64,000 nucleotides of DNA from Candidatus Marinacidobacterales bacterium (GTDB lineage Bacteria > Acidobacteriota > Vicinamibacteria > Marinacidobacterales > SMYC01). The notes below the pieces were generated by a model. It was not told the origin of the DNA, did no database searches, and worked only from the letters and a program-made list of their open reading frames with translations. The translations under genes and the position numbers were made by a program. Position 1 is the first letter of the stretch. Every line of letters begins with the position of its first letter. This document shows positions 49,426-62,517 of this stretch, in pieces. The stretch covers positions 544,001 through 608,000 of the forward strand of contig CBDCYI010000004.1 in assembly GCA_965224085.1 (NCBI GenBank). The letters run 5' to 3'.

Positions 49426-51339
49426 CTACTCCTTTAGCTTCTCCTCCAAAAGCTCGCTCGCGATGTCCATGAAATCCCGCTCTGTAACGATCCCGATGAG
49501 ACGTCCGTCTTTGACGACCGGAAGACTGCCAATCGACTTCCCCTTCAGTAGAGCGACCGCCTCGAGCGTCGTCGTCTCCGGCTCCACCGTCACGAGGTCG
49601 CGTTTCATCACTTCGCTCACAGGAATCGGATCTTCGCGCGTGCCGAACTCGCCCTGCGCCAACAGATGGATGAGTGACCGGTAGGACACTAGTCCCACCA
49701 ACCGATGTTCATGATCTTCCACGGGTACGTGGCGGATCTTCTCCCAGTCCATGAGACTCGCAACCAGGTCGATCGGCTCGTCCTCGTTCACCGTATAGAG
49801 GTCCGTGGTCATGAACTGCTCCACCATCAGGTAGTGGTTCTTCCATCCGCCGGCCTCTTCGAGCGATGCTGCGTGCCATTCCGTCACGGGTCGTCCCTCC
49901 TTTTGCTGGCTCACCATGGAGGCGGTAAGCGCGCTCATGCGCTCGCCGTCGGTGCCTTTTCCTTTCATCGCGGCCAGCGAGTTGTGAAACCACTGTGCTC
50001 CCGTCTTTTTCGTTTCCACGCGCTTTTCGATGGCACCGATATAACGGTCGATGTCCGCCTGGTCGATGTTCGAGCTCTCGAGACCGCTCCGCGCCATTGG
50101 CAATAGCTCTTTCGACAAGAGCTCGCGCGCGGGGCACTCGCGCCCGTCGAACCAAGTGAACTCGGACGCGAGCCCGTTTACGGCCGCCGCGGTAAAGTTC
50201 GAGTGCGCGTCCTCGAACTCCATCACTTTCGTCACGTCATCGATATCTCGCGCAAACGCGCTCACAAGACCAAACCAGAGGGCGGCGTTGGCCACTTCAT
50301 CGACGATCGTCGGGCCTGAAGGCACGTAACGGTTCTCGATACGCAGATGCGGTTTGTCGCCGGTAATGCCGTAGCACGGCCGGTTCCAGCGATAGACCGT
50401 CCCGTTGTGAAGCCTTAAGGCCTTGAGCTCGGGGGGACGGCCCGCGCGGATCTCGGCGAAGGGGTCTTCGTCGAGGTCTCCGCCGAGCAATATCTTGAAG
50501 CGCGCGATGTCCTCACGAAAGAGCTCCGTCGCCGACTCCTTCACCCATTGGCGCCCGAAGCTCACCCGGGGACGCCGCTCGCGGAGATCGTGGCTCGTAC
50601 TGCGAGTGTCGACCGCTTGCTGGAAGAGAGCGATGCGCGTCTCCCGCCACAACCGTCTTCCGAAAAGGAGCGGCGAGTTCGTACAGGCCGCGAGGACGGG
50701 CGCCGCCACCGCCTGCGCGATGTTGTAGAGTCTCGCGAACTCGTTCGCGGTAACTTGAAAGTGCACCTGAAAGCTCGTGTTGCACGATTCGAGCATCACC
50801 GAATCGTGCTTCACGATGAGCTCGTCCATTCCCTTGATTTGGAAGTCGTAGGAGCCCCCGCGCAGCTTGTTCATCGCGCGGTTGAGCGCGAAGTAGCGCG
50901 GCACGGGAGCCATGTTGTCGAGGCCGAGGTCGGACTTTCGAAGCGTCGGCAAAATGCCGCAAAGGGCGATCTCGCCTCCGCAATCCCGCGCGCCGCGGCG
51001 TGCGAGGCCCACCAGCTCGTTCAGCTGCGCTTCGATCTGTGAGAGACAGCCCTTCCCGAAGACGACGGGGTCGAGATTCCCCTCCAGGTTGAACTTCGCG
51101 AGCTCTGTAGTGAATCGAGGATCTTCGATGGTGGCGAGCACTTCAGTCGCGATCGGAGCTGGGCGCCAACCAGCCCCGACGAGGAACATCTCTTGCTCCG
51201 CGCCCACGCGGCGGACGCCGGACTCGATCCAGTCATCCTCGATCATCCGCTCGAGCGCCCTCAGGTCGTCGAGAAGATTTCGCATGAACAGACGCAGCTG
51301 CTCAGGCGAAATGTCGTCCTGCACCTGATGGTCCCCCAT
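49426..51339 (-). CDS. glutamate-cysteine ligase (GCS2)-family protein with C-terminal CBS pair
   Basis: GAEQE, TEL..FNLE, SFQVH, NSP, WNRP, RIENR; two CBS repeats in the last ~130 aa. Confidence 0.85.
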   Translation of the reverse strand: MGDHQVQDDISPEQLRLFMRNLLDDLRALERMIEDDWIESGVRRVGAEQEMFLVGAGWRPAPIATEVLATIEDPRFTTELAKFNLEGNLDPVVFGKGCLSQIEAQLNELVGLARRGARDCGGEIALCGILPTLRKSDLGLDNMAPVPRYFALNRAMNKLRGGSYDFQIKGMDELIVKHDSVMLESCNTSFQVHFQVTANEFARLYNIAQAVAAPVLAACTNSPLLFGRRLWRETRIALFQQAVDTRSTSHDLRERRPRVSFGRQWVKESATELFREDIARFKILLGGDLDEDPFAEIRAGRPPELKALRLHNGTVYRWNRPCYGITGDKPHLRIENRYVPSGPTIVDEVANAALWFGLVSAFARDIDDVTKVMEFEDAHSNFTAAAVNGLASEFTWFDGRECPARELLSKELLPMARSGLESSNIDQADIDRYIGAIEKRVETKKTGAQWFHNSLAAMKGKGTDGERMSALTASMVSQQKEGRPVTEWHAASLEEAGGWKNHYLMVEQFMTTDLYTVNEDEPIDLVASLMDWEKIRHVPVEDHEHRLVGLVSYRSLIHLLAQGEFGTREDPIPVSEVMKRDLVTVEPETTTLEAVALLKGKSIGSLPVVKDGRLIGIVTERDFMDIASELLEEKLKE

Positions 51340-51735: not shown

Positions 51736-51955
51736 TCTGTTTCGGACGTTCGTGCTTGAGGTCCATGAACTCTGTCCCGATCAGATAGGCGTTAGAACGG
51801 GATGACCGTGAGCTAGAAATGCATCTTCCCGAGCGTCTCGTTCAGCTTGCGGCCGAAGAAGGAGGGGCGTTGGACGTTCGTTTCGCACGATGGGAAGCTC
51901 CAACAGTAGACCCGTCGGATGAGAAGAAGATAGAATCTCTCCCCGAGGCAATGGG

Positions 51956-52534
51956 ATGGCCGAGAGATTGGACGCGCCTTCCGATCCAAAACGAAAAGAT
52001 TTTCTATCTAACTTGACGAACGTGGCGATGTTTGCCGGGCTCGTGACCGCCTACGGCACCCTCGCCGCCATCATGGGGCGGTTCCTCTATCCCGCCCGTC
52101 CATCGCCGAGAGGCTGGATGTTCGTGAGCGACATCGCAAGCCTCCAGAGAGGCACGTCGTTTTCCTTCCGCACGCCGTCGGGCGAAGCGGTGAACATCAC
52201 GCGACGCGGCGGCGGCACGGCCGCCGAAAACTTCGCCGCGCTCTCGAGCGTCTGCCCACATCTCGGATGCCAAGTGCACTGGGAGGCCGCAAACGAGCGC
52301 TACTTTTGCCCGTGCCACAACGGCGTCTTTTCCCCCGAGGGTATTGCGACCGCGGGGCCCCCGGCCGACGCTGGGCAAGCGCTCATCGAATATCCGCTCA
52401 AGATAGAGGGGGCCCTCCTGTTCATCGAAGTCGCGTTGACGGAGGTAGCCATTGGCCCCGGGCGCCTCGAGCCGATCCCCGGCCCTCCGGGTCCCGGTCA
52501 CGACCCCTGTCTCTACGATCGGAAAAACGCTTGA
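51956..52534 (+). CDS. Rieske 2Fe-2S subunit of a Rieske/cytochrome b complex
   Basis: Tat-like KRKDFL + TM helix, CPHLGC, CPCHNG. Confidence 0.9.
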   Translation: MAERLDAPSDPKRKDFLSNLTNVAMFAGLVTAYGTLAAIMGRFLYPARPSPRGWMFVSDIASLQRGTSFSFRTPSGEAVNITRRGGGTAAENFAALSSVCPHLGCQVHWEAANERYFCPCHNGVFSPEGIATAGPPADAGQALIEYPLKIEGALLFIEVALTEVAIGPGRLEPIPGPPGPGHDPCLYDRKNA

Positions 52535-53587
52535 CCTCACTCGTCTCGTGGATTCAGGACCGGTTGCCGGCCTCGCCCGGCGCTTTGCGCGAGCTCACGA
52601 ACGAGCCCGTCCCGAACCATCTGAAGAAGTGGTGGTTCGCGCTCGGGGGTACGCCGGCCTATCTCTTCATCGTCCAGATCGCGACCGGCATCTTGCTCGC
52701 CGTGTATTACGAGTCGAGCACGATTACCGCGTACGAGTCGGTCCGCGCCATCACCAACGATGTCTCTTATGGATGGTTTCTGCGAAGCCTTCACAAATGG
52801 GGCGCCACGCTCATGATCGCCGCGGTCATCCTCCATCAGATGCGCGTCTACTTCACCGGCGCCTATCGAAAGCCCCGCGAAATCAATTGGATGGTCGGGA
52901 TGACCATCCTCATCTCTGTTCTGATGCTGGGTTTCACCGGCTATAGCCTCGTCTATGAACAGCTGAGCTATTGGGGCGCCACCGTCGCGGCCAACATCAC
53001 CGGGAGCGTCCCCGTCGTGGGCGATTTCTTGCGGACGCTCCTCCTCGGCGGGGGACACCTATAGCCGTCACACATTGCCGCGATTCTTCATCCTCCACGC
53101 AGCGGTCCTCCCGGTCGCGCTCATTCTTCTGCTCGTCGTGCACATCGCGATCATTCGATTGCAAGGCGTGACGGAGCTTCAGTTCGAGGAAGAGAGCGAA
53201 AAACGCGAACAGGACAAGCACTTCAATTTCTTCCCCGACCATATGTACACGGAGCTCATCGTCGGCTTGTTCTTGATGATTCTACTGAGTGTGCTCGCGA
53301 CAATATTCCCCGCCACCGTCGGCGAGAAAGCAAACCCGCTGGTCACGCCGGAGGTAATCAAGCCGGAGTGGTTTTTCTACGTCACGTTTCGATGGCTCAA
53401 GCTCTTTTCGGGGACCTTCGCTGTCGTCTCGACGGGATTCATCGTCTTCATTATGTTCGGTTGGCCTTTCATCGACGACTGGATTCGCAGGAAAACACGA
53501 TTCACGGAAGCCAGTGTCTGGATAGGCATTCTCGCCGTACTCACTATCATCGGGATGACCGTCTGGGAAGCTTTGGTCGCGCACTAG
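52531..53587 (+). CDS. cytochrome b (b6 + subunit IV fused); +1 frameshift in G run at 53050-53054
   Basis: RSLH...LH, GAYRKPREINW, FFILH...VH, FFPDH, IKPEWFF; removing one G restores GGDTYSRHTLPRF. Confidence 0.88.
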
Positions 53588-53604
53588 CCGGGGGCGCTCA
53601 CGCA

Positions 53605-55227
53605 ATGAATTTGAATCAAAAACGCACCGTTATCGCAGTACTCTCGCTCATCTTTCTTCTTTCGTTGCTGCTCGTGCAGCGGATGGAAGTCGCGCGGCGT
53701 TACGAGGAGATCGGCCTCGTCCCGGGACACGTTGCCGTTCCCGCCGAGTCGCAATCCTGTGTCGACTGTCACGGGCAGTCGACGCCCGGGATCGTCGACC
53801 ATTGGAAGGCGAGCACGCACGCGACGACGGGTGTGGGCTGTGTCGCCTGCCACCAAGCCCAGGAAGGCGACGCCGATACCTTCACCCATTATGGCGAGCA
53901 CATCGCGACCGTGGTCACACCGAATGATTGCTCGAGGTGCCACGGGGAAATCGTCGAAGAGTTTGCCCAGAGCCATCACGCGGCTGCCGGAAACATCCTC
54001 GCCTCTCTCGACAATTTTCTCGCCGAGACGGTCGAGGGTTCCCAATCGCCGTTCAGCCCGCACTCTCCGACTCCCGGCCGGCCGCAAATCCGGGAAGTCA
54101 ACGGTCTCGCGAGCGCTTTTTCGGGCTGCCAGCAATGCCACGGATCGAAGATCGCGCTTCGAGCGACGAGCGGCGATCCCATCACGGTCGACGATCTCGA
54201 GCCCGGCGCCGACGGCAAGCCTACGAACCTCGACGCGGTGGGTCGGATCTCGAGAGACGACAACGGCAAGCCCCGCTACCATTCCGGCAGCTGGCCGAAT
54301 ACCGGAATCGGCCGGCTCAATCTGGACGGCTCCCGCGGCTCGTGCTCCGCTTGTCACAGCCGGCACGATTTCTCGCCACGGCGCGCACGCCAACCCGAGA
54401 ACTGCGGCAAGTGCCACCTCGGCCCCGATCACCCTCAAAAAGAAATCTACGAAGAGTCGAAGCACGGCGTCGCCTATCGCGACCTCCGCGACCAGATGAA
54501 CTTGAACGCTGCCGATTGGGTGCTCGGGCGCGATTACTCCCAGGCGCCGACCTGCGCGACGTGCCACATGTCGGGACACTTGCGCAACGACGGCCGCATC
54601 ACCCACGATCCGGGCGAGCGTATCTCGTGGACCAACCGGCCTCCCATCAGTCTCGTCATGGACACGGATATCAACGGAGCGATCGTCAACGAGACGGACC
54701 CGGACAGGCGGCGCGACCTCATCTTCGACACCGCGGACAACAAGCGCAACCGAATGAAAGAAGTCTGCTCCCACTGCCACACGCCGGATTACGTCAACGG
54801 GTTCTATTCCCAGTACGACGATCTCGTCGTCCTCTATAACGAGAAGTTCGCCAAGCCGGGCAAAGCCATCATGGATGCGCTCGAGGCCGAAGGTCTCGTT
54901 ACACCGACACAATTCGACGACGAGATCGAGTGGACGTGGTTCTACTTGTGGCACCACGAGGGACGTAGAGCCCGCCACGGCGCCTCGATGATGGCGCCAG
55001 ACTATACCCACTGGCACGGGATGTTCGAAGTGGCTGAGCGTTTCTACATGGAGCTCATCCCGCAAGCGCGCGAACTCGCCGAGCACGGAGGCGCACGCGG
55101 TGCGCGCGTCAACCAAACCATCGATGCCATTCTCGGCCGGCCCGAACATGTCTGGTTGGAGGAAGGCGCCGAGGAAGCCATGCGGCGCATCCGCGAGAGC
55201 ATGGAAGAAAAGTACGAGATTCGTTAG
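53605..55227 (+). CDS. membrane-anchored octaheme cytochrome c, hydroxylamine oxidoreductase family
   Basis: Eight CxxCH (CVDCH, CVACH, CSRCH, CQQCH, CSACH, CGKCH, CATCH, CSHCH), SRHDFS, GPDHPQ, ESKHG, PDYTHWHG. Confidence 0.9.
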   Translation: MNLNQKRTVIAVLSLIFLLSLLLVQRMEVARRYEEIGLVPGHVAVPAESQSCVDCHGQSTPGIVDHWKASTHATTGVGCVACHQAQEGDADTFTHYGEHIATVVTPNDCSRCHGEIVEEFAQSHHAAAGNILASLDNFLAETVEGSQSPFSPHSPTPGRPQIREVNGLASAFSGCQQCHGSKIALRATSGDPITVDDLEPGADGKPTNLDAVGRISRDDNGKPRYHSGSWPNTGIGRLNLDGSRGSCSACHSRHDFSPRRARQPENCGKCHLGPDHPQKEIYEESKHGVAYRDLRDQMNLNAADWVLGRDYSQAPTCATCHMSGHLRNDGRITHDPGERISWTNRPPISLVMDTDINGAIVNETDPDRRRDLIFDTADNKRNRMKEVCSHCHTPDYVNGFYSQYDDLVVLYNEKFAKPGKAIMDALEAEGLVTPTQFDDEIEWTWFYLWHHEGRRARHGASMMAPDYTHWHGMFEVAERFYMELIPQARELAEHGGARGARVNQTIDAILGRPEHVWLEEGAEEAMRRIRESMEEKYEIR

Positions 55228-56630: not shown

Positions 56631-56671
56631 ATATGCTGGCGGTCAGTGAAGTTCACGCGTTTCGAAAAGGT

Positions 56672-58000
56672 ATGAAGCGGATGAGGATCGTCAACGTAGC
56701 TCTTTTGTTCAGTCTCGCGGCAAACGCCGGCGCCATGAGCGTGCAGGAGGAAGCGCCCTCCGAAGCTCCAGCGCCGCCGGAATTCTACGCGGCCGACGAC
56801 CGGTTGCGCGACTATATCGACGAGGCGCTCGAGCGCAACCCAGGCGTGCACGAGTCTTTCGGGCGCTACCGAGCCGCTTTGGAGCGAATCCCTCAGGTGG
56901 ACGCGCTGCCGGATCTCGTGCTCAGCTTCACGCAGGCGCTGCGAAGCACGGAGACGCGTGTCGGACCGGTGCGCAACAGCTTCACGCTGTCCCAAAGCTT
57001 CCCGTGGTTCGGTACCCTCGACTTGAAAGGCAAAGTCGCACTAAAGGACGCTCTCGCCGTATACGAGCTTTATCGGGCGCGCCAGCAGGAGATCATCGTC
57101 CAGGTCAAGCGGGCATTCTACGAGCTGGCCTACATCGATGCAGCGCTCGCCATCACCCATGAAGAGCAGTCGCTGCTCGAGCACTACGAGTCGCTTGCCG
57201 ATACGCGCTATGCGACAGGCCAGGGCCTGCAGCAGGCGGTCATCAAGATCCAGGCCGAGATCACGCGCGTACTCAACCGACTGGATCTTTTCGAGCAACA
57301 GCGAGCGACGATGGAAGCGCGTCTCAACACGCTGAGGGACCAGCCTCCACAGGATCCGATCGCAGACATCGATCGACTGTCGATCCCGGAGGTCAACGTC
57401 GACCTCGAGAGGCTCTATGCCCTCGGTCTCGAGAACCGGCAGGAACTCAAAGCCATCGAGCAGCGCATCGAGAGAAACGAAAGAGCCATCGATCTCGCGC
57501 AGAAGGATGGCTGGCCGGATTTTTTCGTCGGCTTCGGGTTCGTCAACATCGGGAATCGGTCGGATGAAGCCGGTATCATCAATCCGCCGCCCGACAATGG
57601 CAAAAACGCGGTAAGCCTTTCCGCCGGTATCACTATCCCGCTCTGGAGGGAAAAATACGATGCCGAGCTGCGCGAAGCGAGCGAAACGCTACGAGCCGAG
57701 CGCAGTAGCTTCGCGAACGTCCAAAACGAGATGGAGTTCTCGATTCGCGATCAGGTCGTACGACTCGAGACCCTCGGCGATCAGATCCGGTTGTTCGAAA
57801 CGGCACTCATCCCCCAGGCAGAGGAGACGCTGCGCGCGACCGAAGCCGCTTATGAAACAGGACAGCTCGGCGTGCTCGATCTTCTGGACAGCGAGCGCGT
57901 GCTCCTCGACGTTCGCGTCGTCAACGCTCGCTACTACTCCGATCTGTTAAATGCTTTGGCAAATCTAGAGCGAGCCATCGGAACGAGCGTTCCGAGGTGA
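56672..58000 (+). CDS. TolC-family outer membrane factor of heavy-metal RND system
   Basis: ALERNP, LSQSFPWFG, ITIPLW, AYETG...LDLLD; upstream of CusB/CusA-like genes. Confidence 0.9.
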   Translation: MKRMRIVNVALLFSLAANAGAMSVQEEAPSEAPAPPEFYAADDRLRDYIDEALERNPGVHESFGRYRAALERIPQVDALPDLVLSFTQALRSTETRVGPVRNSFTLSQSFPWFGTLDLKGKVALKDALAVYELYRARQQEIIVQVKRAFYELAYIDAALAITHEEQSLLEHYESLADTRYATGQGLQQAVIKIQAEITRVLNRLDLFEQQRATMEARLNTLRDQPPQDPIADIDRLSIPEVNVDLERLYALGLENRQELKAIEQRIERNERAIDLAQKDGWPDFFVGFGFVNIGNRSDEAGIINPPPDNGKNAVSLSAGITIPLWREKYDAELREASETLRAERSSFANVQNEMEFSIRDQVVRLETLGDQIRLFETALIPQAEETLRATEAAYETGQLGVLDLLDSERVLLDVRVVNARYYSDLLNALANLERAIGTSVPR

Positions 58001-58008
58001 GGTCATCC

Positions 58009-59373
58009 ATGAAAAAAGCAGTCTTCTTCATTAGCGCTTTTGTTTTCGGCGTTGGCTTCACGGTCTTCGTCCTGGCCAACCCGTTCGGGTGGTCCTGGCT
58101 GAGCCCGCTCGGAACGAGCGTTCTCGGTGGGGGTGGCGGCGAGATGGCGATGAACGAAACTGAGGCGTCCGAGAGCGAGCGAAAGATCAAGCACTGGCAA
58201 GCTCCCATGGACCCGACCTTCATCAGGGACGAGCCCGGGAAGTCTCCCATGGGCATGGACCTCATCCCGGTATACGAAGACGAAACGGACGACGTACCCG
58301 AAGGCGCGATCAAGATCGACCCGGCCTTCGTGCAGAATATCGGCGTTCAATCGCTCGCGATCGAGCGCGTCGACATTCCGTTCACGATCCGCACGGTCGG
58401 GACCCTGACCTACGACGACAAACAGCTCACCTGGGTGAACACCAAATACGATGGCTGGGTCGAGACCGTTTATGTGAACTACGTCGGTGAACCGGTAAGA
58501 AAGGGCCAGAAGCTTTTCGAGATTTATAGTCCCCAGCTCGTCACGACGCAAAAAGAGTATTTGCAGGCCCAGCAATATGCCCGCCGTATGGAGAGCACCG
58601 ACTACCCGGATATCGCGGCCCGGGCCAAGTCACTCGTGGCGTCGGCGCGTGACCGCCTCGGCTATTGGGACATCACCGATGAGCAGATCGCAGAGCTCGA
58701 AAAGAGCGGAGAGCTCAAGAGGACGCTCTCCGTGAATTCTCCCGTGGACGGCGTCGTCGTGGCGAAAATGGACCAGGCTCTCGAAGGCATGTTCGTCAAA
58801 GCAGGCATGAACCTGTACAAGCTCGCTGACCTGTCCACTATCTGGGTCGAGGTCGAGATTTTCGAGAATCAGGTGCCGTGGATGCGCCTCGGACAACGCG
58901 CGCTCGTCGAGCTTCCTTACGAGCCCGGTCAAGAATACGTGGGCCGCGTCCGCTACCTGTATCCGTTCTTCAACGAGAAGACGCGCACGATGAAGGTGTC
59001 CATCGAGCTTCAGAATCCGGGACAGAGACTCCGCGCGGAAATGTACGCGAATGTGGTCTTCGAGGTGCCCTCGGCGCGAAATGTTCTCGCTGTGCCCGAG
59101 GAGGCCGTCATTCACAGCGGCCAGCGGAACGTTGTCGTGCTGGATCGGGGCAACGCAACGTTTCAAGTTGCCGAAGTGACGCTCGGTGTGAACGGAAGCG
59201 GGCTGTGGGAGGTCAAGGAAGGGCTCGAGGACGGCGCCGTGGTCGTCGTCTCGGCACAGTTCCTCATCGATTCGGAGAGCAACCTTCAGGAAGCCATCCG
59301 CAAGATCATCTCGGACAAGGACACGTCGATAGAGCCGCCGAGCGCACCCATTCCGGAGCGCCAGCGCAACTAG
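58009..59373 (+). CDS. cusB: CusB/SilB-type periplasmic adaptor
   Basis: WQAPMDP..PGKSPMGMDL metal-binding domain, YSPQL, SAQFLIDSES. Confidence 0.85.
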   Translation: MKKAVFFISAFVFGVGFTVFVLANPFGWSWLSPLGTSVLGGGGGEMAMNETEASESERKIKHWQAPMDPTFIRDEPGKSPMGMDLIPVYEDETDDVPEGAIKIDPAFVQNIGVQSLAIERVDIPFTIRTVGTLTYDDKQLTWVNTKYDGWVETVYVNYVGEPVRKGQKLFEIYSPQLVTTQKEYLQAQQYARRMESTDYPDIAARAKSLVASARDRLGYWDITDEQIAELEKSGELKRTLSVNSPVDGVVVAKMDQALEGMFVKAGMNLYKLADLSTIWVEVEIFENQVPWMRLGQRALVELPYEPGQEYVGRVRYLYPFFNEKTRTMKVSIELQNPGQRLRAEMYANVVFEVPSARNVLAVPEEAVIHSGQRNVVVLDRGNATFQVAEVTLGVNGSGLWEVKEGLEDGAVVVVSAQFLIDSESNLQEAIRKIISDKDTSIEPPSAPIPERQRN

Positions 59374-59385
59374 GATGATGGCACG

Positions 59386-62300
59386 ATGCTAGAGAAGATC
59401 ATCGACTGGTCCATCGCGAACAAGTTCATGGTGATCCTAGGCTCGGGATTCGTGTCTCTCATGGGACTTGCCGCCGTCCAGAACACGCCGCTCGACGCCA
59501 TCCCGGATCTCTCCGACGTACAGGTGATCGTCTTCACGGAATATCCGGGGCAAGCGCCGCAAGTCGTCGAGGACCAGATCACCTACCCCATCACGACACA
59601 GATGCTCGCCGTCCCTTTTGCGAAAGTCGTGCGCGGCTATTCTTTTTTTGGATTCTCGTTCGTCTACATCATCTTCGAAGACGGAACCGACATGTACTGG
59701 GCGAGGAGCCGTGTGCTCGAGTACATGAACTATGTGAGCGGAGCCCTGCCAGAGGGGGTCAGCCCCACCCTCGGGCCCGATGCGACCGGTGTCGGATGGG
59801 CGTTCATATACGCCCTGAAGTCCAAGCAACGCAGCCTTGGAGATTTGCGAAGCATTCAGGACTGGTTCTTGAAGTACGAGCTCACCGCCGTTCAGGGCGT
59901 CTCCGAAGTGGCGAGCATCGGCGGCTTCGTCAAGCAATATCAGGTCACCGTCGACCCCAACAAGCTCCGGGCCTACGACATTTCTATTTCCAAGATTCGA
60001 AGGGCCATCCAGAGAAGCAACAACGACGTAGGGGGCCGCGTCCTGGAGATGTCAGAAACCGAGTTCATGATCCGAGGCGAGGGCTATATCCAGAACGTCG
60101 ACCACATCAAGGACATCGCACTCGGAGTGGACCAGAACGGAACACCCATTCTCTTGAAGGACGTGGGCACCGTGCAACGAGGGCCCGAGATGCGCCGGGG
60201 CCTCGCCGAGCTGAACGGCGAAGGAGAAGTCGTCGGCGGCATCATCGTCGTCCGCTACGGCGCCAATGCCTACGACGTCATCCAGAACGTGAAAGCGAAG
60301 CTCGAGAGTCTCCGCGCGGGTTTGCCCGACGACATCGAGATCGTGCCCGTCTACGATCGATCGGGGCTCATCGAGAGATCCGTCGAGACCCTCGCGGAAA
60401 AACTCATTGAGGAAAGCGTCGTCGTCGCGCTCGTCTGCATCATCTTTCTCTTTCACGTCCGCTCAGCGCTCGTCGCGATCCTGACGCTCCCGATCGCCAT
60501 CCTGATGGCCTTCATCGTCATGCAGCAGCAGGGGCTCAACGCCAACATCATGTCGCTCGGAGGGATCGCCATCGCTATCGGCGCGATGGTAGATGCGGCG
60601 ATCATCATGATCGAGAACGCGCACAAGCATCTCGAGCGTGAAAAAGGGGAGAAGGAGCACTGGCAGATCATTGCCGACGCCGCCAAAGAGGTCGGGCCCA
60701 CACTCTTTTACGCTCTACTCGTGATTACCGTCTCGTTCGTGCCGGTCTTCACCCTGGAAGCTCAGGAAGGAAGGCTCTTCAAACCGCTCGCTTTCACCAA
60801 GACCTACTCGATGGCCGCAGCGTCCATCCTCTCCATCACCCTCGTCCCGGTGCTCATGGGCTATTGGATCCGCGGCAGGATTCGCAGCGAGCATGAGAAT
60901 CCGATCAGCCGTTTTCTGATTTACGTCTACGACCCCATCCTACATTTCGTTCTGCGATTCAAATGGTCCCTGCTTCTCGTGGCCACGCTTCTCATGGCCA
61001 GCATGATCGTTCCCGTGCGCCGGCTGGGCTCCGAGTTCATGCCACCCTTGTGGGAAGGCGACATGCTCTACATGCCCACGACTTTCCCCGGTATCTCCAT
61101 CACGAAGGCAAGAGAGCTGCTCCAGCAAACGGACAAGATCATCGTCCAGTTTCCCGAAGTTCACCACGTTTTCGGCAAAGTCGGACGGGCCGATACCGCC
61201 ACGGATCCGGCGCCTCTATCCATGATCGAGACCACCATTACTTTGAAACCGGAATCCGAGTGGCGCCCGGGAATGACGATAGAAAAGCTTACCGAGGAGC
61301 TGAACCAAGCCCTTCAGTTTCCCGGGCTGACCAACGCCTGGACCATGCCCATCAAGACACGGATCGACATGCTTTCCACCGGGATCAAGACACCGGTGGG
61401 GATCAAGGTGGCGGGACCCGATCTCACGCGATTGCAGGAGATTGGCGAGGAAGTGGAGTCCGTGGTAAGCCGCGTACCAGGAACGCTCTCCGTCTATTCC
61501 GAGCGCGTCATGGGCGGCAACTACTTGAACTTCAGCATCCGTCGCGACGCGATCGCGCGCTACGGGCTGACGGTGGGCGACGTGCAGGATGTCATTCAGT
61601 CGGCGATCGGCGGTATGAACATCACGACCACCGTGGAAGGACTCGAGCGGTATCCCGTCAACCTGCGCTACAGCCGCGAGCTCCGGCACAATCTGCCGGC
61701 CCTGAAAGACATTCTCGTGCCGACCCCGACGGGGCAGCACATCCCGCTGGGCCAGCTGACAGACCTCGCCATCACCAAAGGCCCGCCCGCGATCAAGACC
61801 GAGAACTCGCGCCCCAACGCGTGGATCTATGTTGATATCACCGGTATTGATGTCGGCACGTATGTGACGATGGCCCAACAAGCGGTCGCGGAGAACGTGG
61901 ACATCCCGGATGGATACAGCATCGGCTGGAGCGGGCAGTACGAGTACATGGTGCGCGCGGAAGAGCGCCTCGAACTGGTCATCCCGCTGACGCTCGTAAT
62001 CATTTTCGTGATCATTTATACGAATACGAAGTCCATCTTCGAGACCCTCGTCGTTCTTCTGGCCGTGCCTTTTGCTCTCATCGGCGCGTTCTGGCTGATG
62101 TACTTCTTGGACTACAACTTGAGCATCGCGGTCTGGGTCGGGATCATCGCCCTCGCCGGTGTGAGCGCGGAGACCGGCGTCGTCATGCTGCTCTATCTCC
62201 AAGTCGCGTACGACGAGGCCGTGAGCAAGGGTTTGATGCGCCATAAACAGGACCTCGTGGATGCGGTGTATCAGGGGGCGGTGAGCCGGGTGCGGCCCAA

Positions 62301-62517
62301 GATCATGACGGCCAGCGTGATTATGGCGGGCCTCCTCCCTATCCTGTGGAGCCACGGATCCGGCGCCGATGTGATGAAGCGGATAGCCACCCCGATGGTC
62401 GGGGGCATGGTGACGTCAGTCATCGTCGTTCTCCTCGTCTACCCGGCGATCTACTACATCTGGAAAGGGTGGCGCCTGCCTGGGGAAGAGTCGGAAGAGG
62501 GCGCCGTCGCGAGCTGA
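59386..62517 (+). CDS. cusA: CusA/SilA heavy-metal efflux RND permease
   Basis: LDAIPDLSDVQV, NIMSLGGIAIAIGAMVD, EFMP, YMPTT, MIET, MKRIATPMVGG. Confidence 0.92.
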   Translation: MLEKIIDWSIANKFMVILGSGFVSLMGLAAVQNTPLDAIPDLSDVQVIVFTEYPGQAPQVVEDQITYPITTQMLAVPFAKVVRGYSFFGFSFVYIIFEDGTDMYWARSRVLEYMNYVSGALPEGVSPTLGPDATGVGWAFIYALKSKQRSLGDLRSIQDWFLKYELTAVQGVSEVASIGGFVKQYQVTVDPNKLRAYDISISKIRRAIQRSNNDVGGRVLEMSETEFMIRGEGYIQNVDHIKDIALGVDQNGTPILLKDVGTVQRGPEMRRGLAELNGEGEVVGGIIVVRYGANAYDVIQNVKAKLESLRAGLPDDIEIVPVYDRSGLIERSVETLAEKLIEESVVVALVCIIFLFHVRSALVAILTLPIAILMAFIVMQQQGLNANIMSLGGIAIAIGAMVDAAIIMIENAHKHLEREKGEKEHWQIIADAAKEVGPTLFYALLVITVSFVPVFTLEAQEGRLFKPLAFTKTYSMAAASILSITLVPVLMGYWIRGRIRSEHENPISRFLIYVYDPILHFVLRFKWSLLLVATLLMASMIVPVRRLGSEFMPPLWEGDMLYMPTTFPGISITKARELLQQTDKIIVQFPEVHHVFGKVGRADTATDPAPLSMIETTITLKPESEWRPGMTIEKLTEELNQALQFPGLTNAWTMPIKTRIDMLSTGIKTPVGIKVAGPDLTRLQEIGEEVESVVSRVPGTLSVYSERVMGGNYLNFSIRRDAIARYGLTVGDVQDVIQSAIGGMNITTTVEGLERYPVNLRYSRELRHNLPALKDILVPTPTGQHIPLGQLTDLAITKGPPAIKTENSRPNAWIYVDITGIDVGTYVTMAQQAVAENVDIPDGYSIGWSGQYEYMVRAEERLELVIPLTLVIIFVIIYTNTKSIFETLVVLLAVPFALIGAFWLMYFLDYNLSIAVWVGIIALAGVSAETGVVMLLYLQVAYDEAVSKGLMRHKQDLVDAVYQGAVSRVRPKIMTASVIMAGLLPILWSHGSGADVMKRIATPMVGGMVTSVIVVLLVYPAIYYIWKGWRLPGEESEEGAVAS

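Follow-up and report, generated by a model that had tools for sequence, protein, structure and literature searches.

A 64,000-nucleotide (nt) stretch of the genome of a Candidatus Marinacidobacterales bacterium (Acidobacteriota; assembly GCA_965224085.1, contig CBDCYI010000004.1, positions 544,001 to 608,000), hereafter called the window, carries genes that specify a Rieske iron-sulfur protein, a cytochrome b, and an octaheme cytochrome c that is membrane-anchored and belongs to the hydroxylamine oxidoreductase (HAO) superfamily. The three genes lie in the same direction on the forward strand, at positions 51956-55227 (Table 1), and all of them obtained NCBIfam as well as Pfam matches. The TTG start codon of cytochrome b at 52531 overlaps the TGA stop codon of the Rieske gene by 4 nt, while the octaheme ATG at 53605 follows the final cytochrome b stop codon (53585-53587) after a gap of 17 nt. 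A c1- or f-type gene is absent from the window, since the octaheme gene is the only open reading frame (ORF) in it with two or more CxxCH motifs. A preliminary description of this DNA had given the same gene coordinates, overlap, and gap, and the same lack of a c1/f subunit, all of which the sequence bears out. It missed, however, that cytochrome b is interrupted by an extra G. The notion of a Rieske/cytochrome b unit that lacks c1/f and is joined to an HAO-superfamily octaheme holds at the level of the family, but the copy described here has a frameshifted cytochrome b. The region with the sigma-70-like promoter match of Table 1 contains four such sites, compared with 1.2 expected from shuffled sequences.

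Table 1. Features of the Rieske/cytochrome b/octaheme operon, in window coordinates
Feature	Position	Strand	Evidence and remarks
Sigma-70-like promoter match	51907-51936	+	9 of 12 consensus positions, just 5' of the Rieske gene; weak evidence
Rieske [2Fe-2S] subunit, 192 amino acids, N-terminal membrane helix	51956-52534	+	PF00355, 34.4 bits (cutoff, 20.3)
Cytochrome b, 5' part (helices A to C, two helix-B His)	52531-53064	+	PF00033, E value 6e-44; TTG start, premature TAG end
Run of five G with one extra G (+1 frameshift mutation)	53050-53054	+	1-nt gap in DNA alignment with L087, L089, and L090
Cytochrome b, 3' part, +1 frame (helix D, Qo motif PEWF, C-terminal helices)	53054-53587	+	PF00032, PF13631
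Membrane-anchored octaheme cytochrome c, IhOCC/HAO clade, 540 amino acids	53605-55227	+	PF13447, 81.4 bits (cutoff, 21.9)

The Rieske and cytochrome b genes

The Rieske protein conforms to the cluster-binding pattern CxHxGC/CxCH, with CPHLGC as box I and CPCHNGVF as box II. Box II was found in 72 relatives, and all 72 also contain CPHLGC. In every one of these relatives box II ends in Phe, and in 70 of them Gly takes the place of the Ser. The lack of the Ser and Tyr hydrogen-bond donors, which had been pointed out for the window protein, thus extends to the motifs of its relatives. The potential of a Rieske cluster falls by ~130 mV without the Ser and by ~65 mV without the Tyr (PMC12954380). 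With both residues missing and these costs known, a low-potential, menaquinol-type cluster is a fair inference from the sequence.

Frame 1 of cytochrome b terminates at a TAG codon (53062-53064), and the conserved continuation (..TLPRFFILH..) is located in frame 2 (+1). When the DNA is aligned with that of three family-level relatives (L087, L089, and L090), a single surplus base shows up in the G run. Relatives read LLGG-D/E-x-[FY]-x-x-[HR]-T-L-[PS]-RFF within one ORF of ~350 amino acids. A relative of the octaheme is encoded by 564 stretches overall, which were drawn from the contigs of a one-genome-per-species set, so that at least 564 species genomes possess one; counts out of 80 given here refer to the best 80 related loci. 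An uninterrupted cytochrome b, as defined by a length filter of 330 to 370 amino acids, is encoded in 66 of these 80. The extra G was present in the contigs of all four public runs in which it was checked (X1, X2, X3, and X5, from three studies and possibly including the source of the window itself), with no other letters and no gaps. The base is therefore real in the DNA and not an artifact of one assembly. Two related loci, L016 and L045, likewise have the halves of cytochrome b in separate frames; whether as true breaks or as assembly errors, such interruptions are hence not unique to the window.

The frame break separates the helix-B from the helix-D pair of His residues, which jointly bind both b hemes. 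Codons for all four heme-ligating His residues are present, although helix B and helix D are in different frames around the premature TAG, and the window encodes the four neither in one intact polypeptide nor in a b6/subunit IV arrangement split after helix D. In the relatives, the heme-ligating His residues are invariant within a single ORF (cytochrome b alignment A3). The helix-D histidines are spaced 15 residues apart, as in b6-type proteins, and the position of the heme-ci cysteine is occupied by Ala in a reading of the sequence by eye. The Qo motif is PEWF in the window, as it is in 58 of the 70 relatives with a motif, the other 12 having PEWY. The N-terminal part of cytochrome b scores highest against ExtP (NF040969; 179.9 bits, under the cutoff of 290), closely followed by a generic cytochrome b6 model (177.5 bits). 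Since cytochrome b is frameshifted, an active module in this genome is not to be assumed.

The octaheme cytochrome

The octaheme protein has one hydrophobic segment, inside residues 5-30, and CxxCH occurs in it exactly eight times, at residues 52, 79, 109, 175, 247, 267, 317, and 388. Motif count and hydrophobicity thus agree with the eight hemes and the single N-terminal transmembrane helix that had been noted at the outset. The eight motifs are invariant across the 54 octaheme sequences of a wider alignment (A2), and their order is that of the HAO superfamily. Direct sequence searches of the PDB placed IhOCC (Igni_0955 of the archaeon Ignicoccus hospitalis, 4QO5) first (E value, 1.3e-42), ahead of Kuenenia HAOr (6H5L; 1.7e-25) and Nitrosomonas europaea HAO (NeHAO; 1.7e-18). 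With a family profile, the corresponding values were 6.8e-103, 7.4e-48, and 1.3e-52. Consistently with these matches, an AlphaFold model of the protein (pLDDT, 92; pTM, 0.85) retrieved 4qo5 as the best Foldseek match (E value, 9e-20; TM score, 0.62 to 0.64), followed by HAOr, HAO, and HDH. All ten top matches were IhOCC, HAOr, HAO, or HDH structures with a probability of 1.00, which assigns the model to the HAO/IhOCC fold. Sequence, profile, and predicted fold agree in placing the octaheme with the IhOCC type, and not as a close relative of epsilon-Hao, with which the preliminary description had compared it, or of the anammox paralogues. An identity as NrfA or as an octaheme nitrite reductase (ONR) of the TvNiR type was also considered and rejected, given a sequence match to NrfA in the PDB at an E value of only 0.16 and TM scores of 0.14 to 0.29 with NrfA/ONR structures.

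Residues around the active site were compared by alignment. NeHAO (1FGJ/4FAS) shares with the window protein the fold, the eight hemes in the same order, and the distal Asp-His pair; Asp267-His268 of NeHAO aligns with Asp275-His276, and the GPDHP motif is kept in 80/80 loci. In the wider alignment A2, the Asp of this pair is found in 45 and the His in 41 of the 54 sequences. The two proteins differ in that NeHAO is soluble while the window octaheme is anchored N-terminally, and in that NeHAO Tyr334 aligns with Arg345. They differ also at the cross-link position, where Tyr467 of NeHAO is joined to heme 4 of the adjacent subunit: in the profile alignment, W465-T466-Y467 of NeHAO corresponds to Y467-T468-H469, within the motif PDYTHWHG, so that His, with a Trp adjoining, takes the place of the Tyr. 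A motif of the form PDY[TAS]HWHG, i.e., with His at the Tyr467 position, is present in 74 of the 80 loci. The same position is occupied by Thr in IhOCC (W-T-T) and by Trp in HAOr (V-S-W). The earlier claim, made by eye, that the cross-link Tyr is missing and that Trp stands in its place was correct in its first half, as judged by this alignment with the Nitrosomonas enzyme; the Trp was off by one, because Trp470 meets Tyr467 only if a one-residue gap is shifted.

A further position sets the protein apart from NeHAO. All 34 sequences of alignment A4 share Met462 (listed there as M461, since the numbering follows L005), and Met also stands here in 48 of the 54 sequences of A2. NeHAO (His459) and HAOr have His here, whereas IhOCC has Met, which again places the octaheme with IhOCC. 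Met462 (Met384 was also noticed) could provide one heme with His/Met ligation, and this may be an entry heme facing the Rieske protein. IhOCC thus resembles the window octaheme in sequence, fold, the Met, and the lack of a Tyr at the cross-link position. It differs in its archaeal origin and in an identity of only ~24% in the structural alignment. IhOCC is reportedly membrane-associated.

The activities described for these relatives are reductive. IhOCC is described as an octaheme nitrite reductase that lacks heme P460 (PMC9250108), the Tyr-less HAOr converts nitrite to NO and is unable to oxidize hydroxylamine, and epsilon-Haos reduce both nitrite and hydroxylamine (PMC8042395).

Conservation of the cassette, its known counterparts, and its state in this genome

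Homologues of the octaheme are numerous: 7964 of 8000 candidates scored at an E value of 1e-5 or better, the best 120 all being at least 71% identical, and 1933 cluster representatives matched at an E value of 0.001 or better. Carriers are labeled Acidobacteriota, Planctomycetota, Gemmatimonadota, Myxococcota, Binatia, and Chloroflexota, among others. The Rieske-cytochrome b-octaheme order is colinear in 71 of the 80 loci, across many phyla. Among the other nine, seven are truncated at contig ends but keep cytochrome b directly upstream, L011 has the 3' part of cytochrome b only, and L038 has a divergent Rieske/cytochrome b pair on the opposite strand. Altogether, cytochrome b is directly upstream of the octaheme on the same strand in 79/80. 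Synteny of the three genes is thus conserved, and the survey of gene order proposed in the preliminary description came out in favor of the cassette. In a quick tree of 74 sequences (six of the 80 loci were left out because their matches were short or interrupted), the window octaheme groups with an Acidobacteriota sequence (Shimodaira-Hasegawa-like approximate likelihood ratio test support, 95). The phylum labels are clustered on this tree, if not cleanly so, with 13 changes compared with 33 for shuffled labels.

In at least 38 of the 80 loci, the gene that immediately follows the octaheme is that of a periplasmic nitrate reductase, napA (equivalog NF010055; 951 and 950 bits against a cutoff of 904). 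The remaining 42 loci, some of them cut by contig ends, have no NapA match and keep an octaheme of 64 to 77% identity. In L005, the one locus inspected for them, neither napB nor napC was found next to napA. A heme-copper oxidase was rejected as a general partner, as COX1/COX2 genes lie within a few kilobases of the octaheme in only five loci (L004, L005, L026, L075, and L079).

Three published systems bear comparison with the cassette. In Nitrospira moscoviensis and Nitrospira japonica, the "ONR/OCC" gene is preceded by two Rieske/cytochrome b genes, the same three-gene architecture as in the window, and this periplasmic octaheme is proposed to draw on the quinone pool for the electrons with which it reduces nitrite to ammonium (PMC6311188, PMC6606698, PMC12342949). 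The "ONR" gene and the two Rieske/cytochrome b genes are co-expressed when nitrite is the sole nitrogen source (PMC6606698, PMC12342949), and with added ammonia the ONR is not expressed (PMC6311188, PMC12342949, PMC6606698). The likeness is one of architecture; the role proposed in Nitrospira is assimilatory, and the window copy has its cytochrome b frameshifted. In the nap cluster of Caldithrix abyssi, which reduces nitrate, a Rieske protein (Cabys_2558) and a cytochrome b (Cabys_2557) adjoin a Tyr-less epsilon-Hao (Cabys_2556) and Nap, and the authors proposed that the octaheme nitrite reductase receives electrons from quinol by way of Rieske/cytochrome b (PMC5317091). Here the likeness is in gene context, while gene order and nap content (napMADGH being present) differ and the epsilon-Hao is described as periplasmic (PMC5317091).

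The R/b-3 complex of Kuenenia stuttgartiensis (kuste4569-4574) combines Rieske/cytochrome b with an HAO-like octaheme, Kuste4574, that is thought to reduce nitrite (PMC12485887, PMC12954380). It is more elaborate, with six genes, a split b6/subunit IV, a further multiheme cytochrome, and an NAD(P) oxidoreductase, and its Rieske protein, in contrast to that of the window, keeps both Ser and Tyr and has a potential of +303 mV (PMC12954380). The architecture is therefore not new: it is in print for Nitrospira and Caldithrix, and in a more complex form for anammox bacteria. The literature searched, to which subscription journals and supplements did not belong, yielded no biochemical work on the three-gene complex of bacteria.

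The host genome (6.87 Mb, 95% complete) contains only one PF13447 gene. A profile search of the whole genome gave no NapA, NarG, or NirK over the cutoff, and the window contains no napA. A weak PF02335 (NrfA) match elsewhere in the genome (27.4 bits over 65 profile positions) was not counted as NrfA. The octaheme was found in none of four genomes of the same genus (93 to 94% complete) and in 4 of 18 genomes of the same family. As cytochrome b is broken, napA is missing, and the cassette is absent from the genus, the cassette in this genome is most likely a recently inactivated remnant.

Several other regions of this genome were also noted. The best NapA-like region (C4:1101005-1102855 in the host genome, G000) has 30% identity and is matched in three pieces, which lie in different open frames and one of which has a TGA inside it; possibly this is a further molybdoenzyme gene that is broken. 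A second Rieske/cytochrome b locus (L083; C5:548937-552350 in G000) encodes a Rieske protein of 186 amino acids, a b6-like cytochrome b of 265 amino acids, and a subunit IV-like protein of 380 amino acids without CxxCH, and is probably a housekeeping complex. Next to the operon, positions 49426-51339 of the window (reverse strand) encode a protein of 637 amino acids that combines a glutamate-cysteine-ligase-2 domain with two CBS domains at its C terminus. Of the 80 loci, one (L004) has a homologue of it with 55% identity directly upstream of the cassette, and three more have weak partial matches (34 to 38%). A HupE-like gene downstream of the operon was matched in 0/80 loci, so that the immediate surroundings of the operon in the window are not conserved. 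Further downstream, positions 56633-62517 (forward strand) appear by eye to encode an outer membrane factor, a membrane fusion protein, and a resistance-nodulation-division (RND) pump of 1043 amino acids that resembles the heavy-metal (Cus/Czc) pumps; this trio is not conserved next to the cassette in relatives.

Proposed function and alternative explanations

The best explanation, to which we assign a probability of roughly 60%, is that the three genes form one operon for a quinol-oxidizing Rieske/cytochrome b complex in which an octaheme of the IhOCC branch serves as the c-type subunit and reduces nitrite, hydroxylamine, or NO, and that this operon is probably inactivated in the present genome. 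Menaquinol would be oxidized at the Qo site of the Q-cycle core. One electron would pass through the low-potential Rieske cluster into the heme chain of the octaheme and arrive at an open-sided heme 4, the presumed periplasmic site at which nitrite (and/or hydroxylamine or NO) would be reduced. Recycling of the second electron via the two b hemes would couple the reduction to the proton-motive force. In operons that continue with napA, this heme chain probably also feeds the nitrate reductase. The menaquinol-driven nitrite/NO/hydroxylamine reductase of the preliminary description is in keeping with this scheme for the family, but not as an active module in this organism, where cytochrome b is frameshifted.

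A number of observations weigh against this explanation. The substrate and product of the clade (NH4+ or NO) are drawn from distant relatives, with 17 to 24% identity in structure alignments, and conserved gene order is the only support for an association of the octaheme with cytochrome b and Rieske. No Nitrospira name occurs among the members listed for the 20 distant cluster representatives that were looked up. HAO-type proteins are trimers and Rieske/cytochrome b complexes are dimers, which is a mismatch. NapA directly 3' of the octaheme, without NapB/NapC seen in L005, fits a pure relay equally well. As to the presumed inactivation, neither the Rieske nor the octaheme gene is broken and several samples share one and the same sequence, so that the frameshift may be recent or tolerated, and a +1 slip on GGG_G would restore the exact consensus peptide.

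With NapA directly downstream in so many loci, a plain relay role is a serious rival, possible if on balance doubtful. The octaheme would then be an electron wire only, which stands in for cytochrome c1 (and, where Nap is part of the operon, for NapB/NapC as well) and passes electrons from Rieske to NapA or other periplasmic acceptors without catalysis. Besides the position of napA and the lack of napB/napC beside it in L005, the absence of any other c-type cytochrome gene from the window agrees with such a role, and relay routes were weighed by the Caldithrix authors too (PMC5317091). However, the 42 loci without a NapA match have nonetheless kept the octaheme, the HAO-type Asp-His pair of the pocket is retained in every locus, and the nearest solved relatives are enzymes (PMC8042395, PMC9250108).

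The cassette might instead still function in this strain, either through a +1 ribosomal slip on GGG_G (the next codon being GGA) or through assembly of two separately made cytochrome b pieces, which we regard as unlikely. The slip would give back the consensus LGGDTYSRHTLPRFF, translation could begin anew at a TTG (53075), the two flanking genes (Rieske and octaheme) are free of defects and keep all invariant residues, and the same sequence is fixed in four runs from three studies. Yet no stimulatory element is evident, be it a stop codon in frame where the slip would occur or a Shine-Dalgarno sequence upstream, and each b heme requires one His from each fragment. Moreover, only L016 and L045 are split by frame among the loci with both halves matched on the operon strand, 66/80 have a single ORF, and napA is missing from the genome. 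A bolder version of the preferred explanation, quite unlikely in our estimation, would have the cassette with napA form a self-contained, Q-cycle-coupled nitrate-nitrite-ammonium (or NO) supercomplex, in which the octaheme is at once the c1 substitute, the NapA donor, and the nitrite reductase, with residual expression in this genome by +1 slippage at GGG_G.

Multiheme enzymes of the HAO superfamily are promiscuous, and the N-terminal part of cytochrome b scores best against ExtP of a Geobacter selenite/tellurite operon. A substrate other than a nitrogen compound (sulfite, tetrathionate, selenite, or tellurite) is nevertheless very improbable, given that the ExtP match is below the cutoff and about equal to that of the generic b6 model, that the operon partner in relatives is NapA, and that expression in Nitrospira follows the nitrogen source (PMC12342949, PMC6606698). 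Least credible of all is an oxidative hydroxylamine oxidoreductase delivering electrons to the quinone pool, as the database names of relatives ("hydroxylamine oxidoreductase" or "hydroxylamine dehydrogenase") would have it: the cross-link position has no Tyr, the Tyr-less HAOr is unable to oxidize hydroxylamine (PMC8042395), a Rieske/cytochrome b complex normally works from quinol to cytochrome c, and no amo genes were seen, none having been searched for.

The window copy by itself adds little beyond showing the cassette being lost in one genome, and it cautions that reading frames should be checked before such genes are scored as functional. If the preferred explanation is true for the family, many Acidobacteriota, Planctomycetota, Gemmatimonadota, and other bacteria would reduce nitrite without NrfA, NirK, or NirS, a point on NrfA-independent reduction already raised in the Nitrospira and Caldithrix genome papers. 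Such nitrite reduction would conserve energy, and surveys of nitrogen-cycle genes would overlook its carriers.

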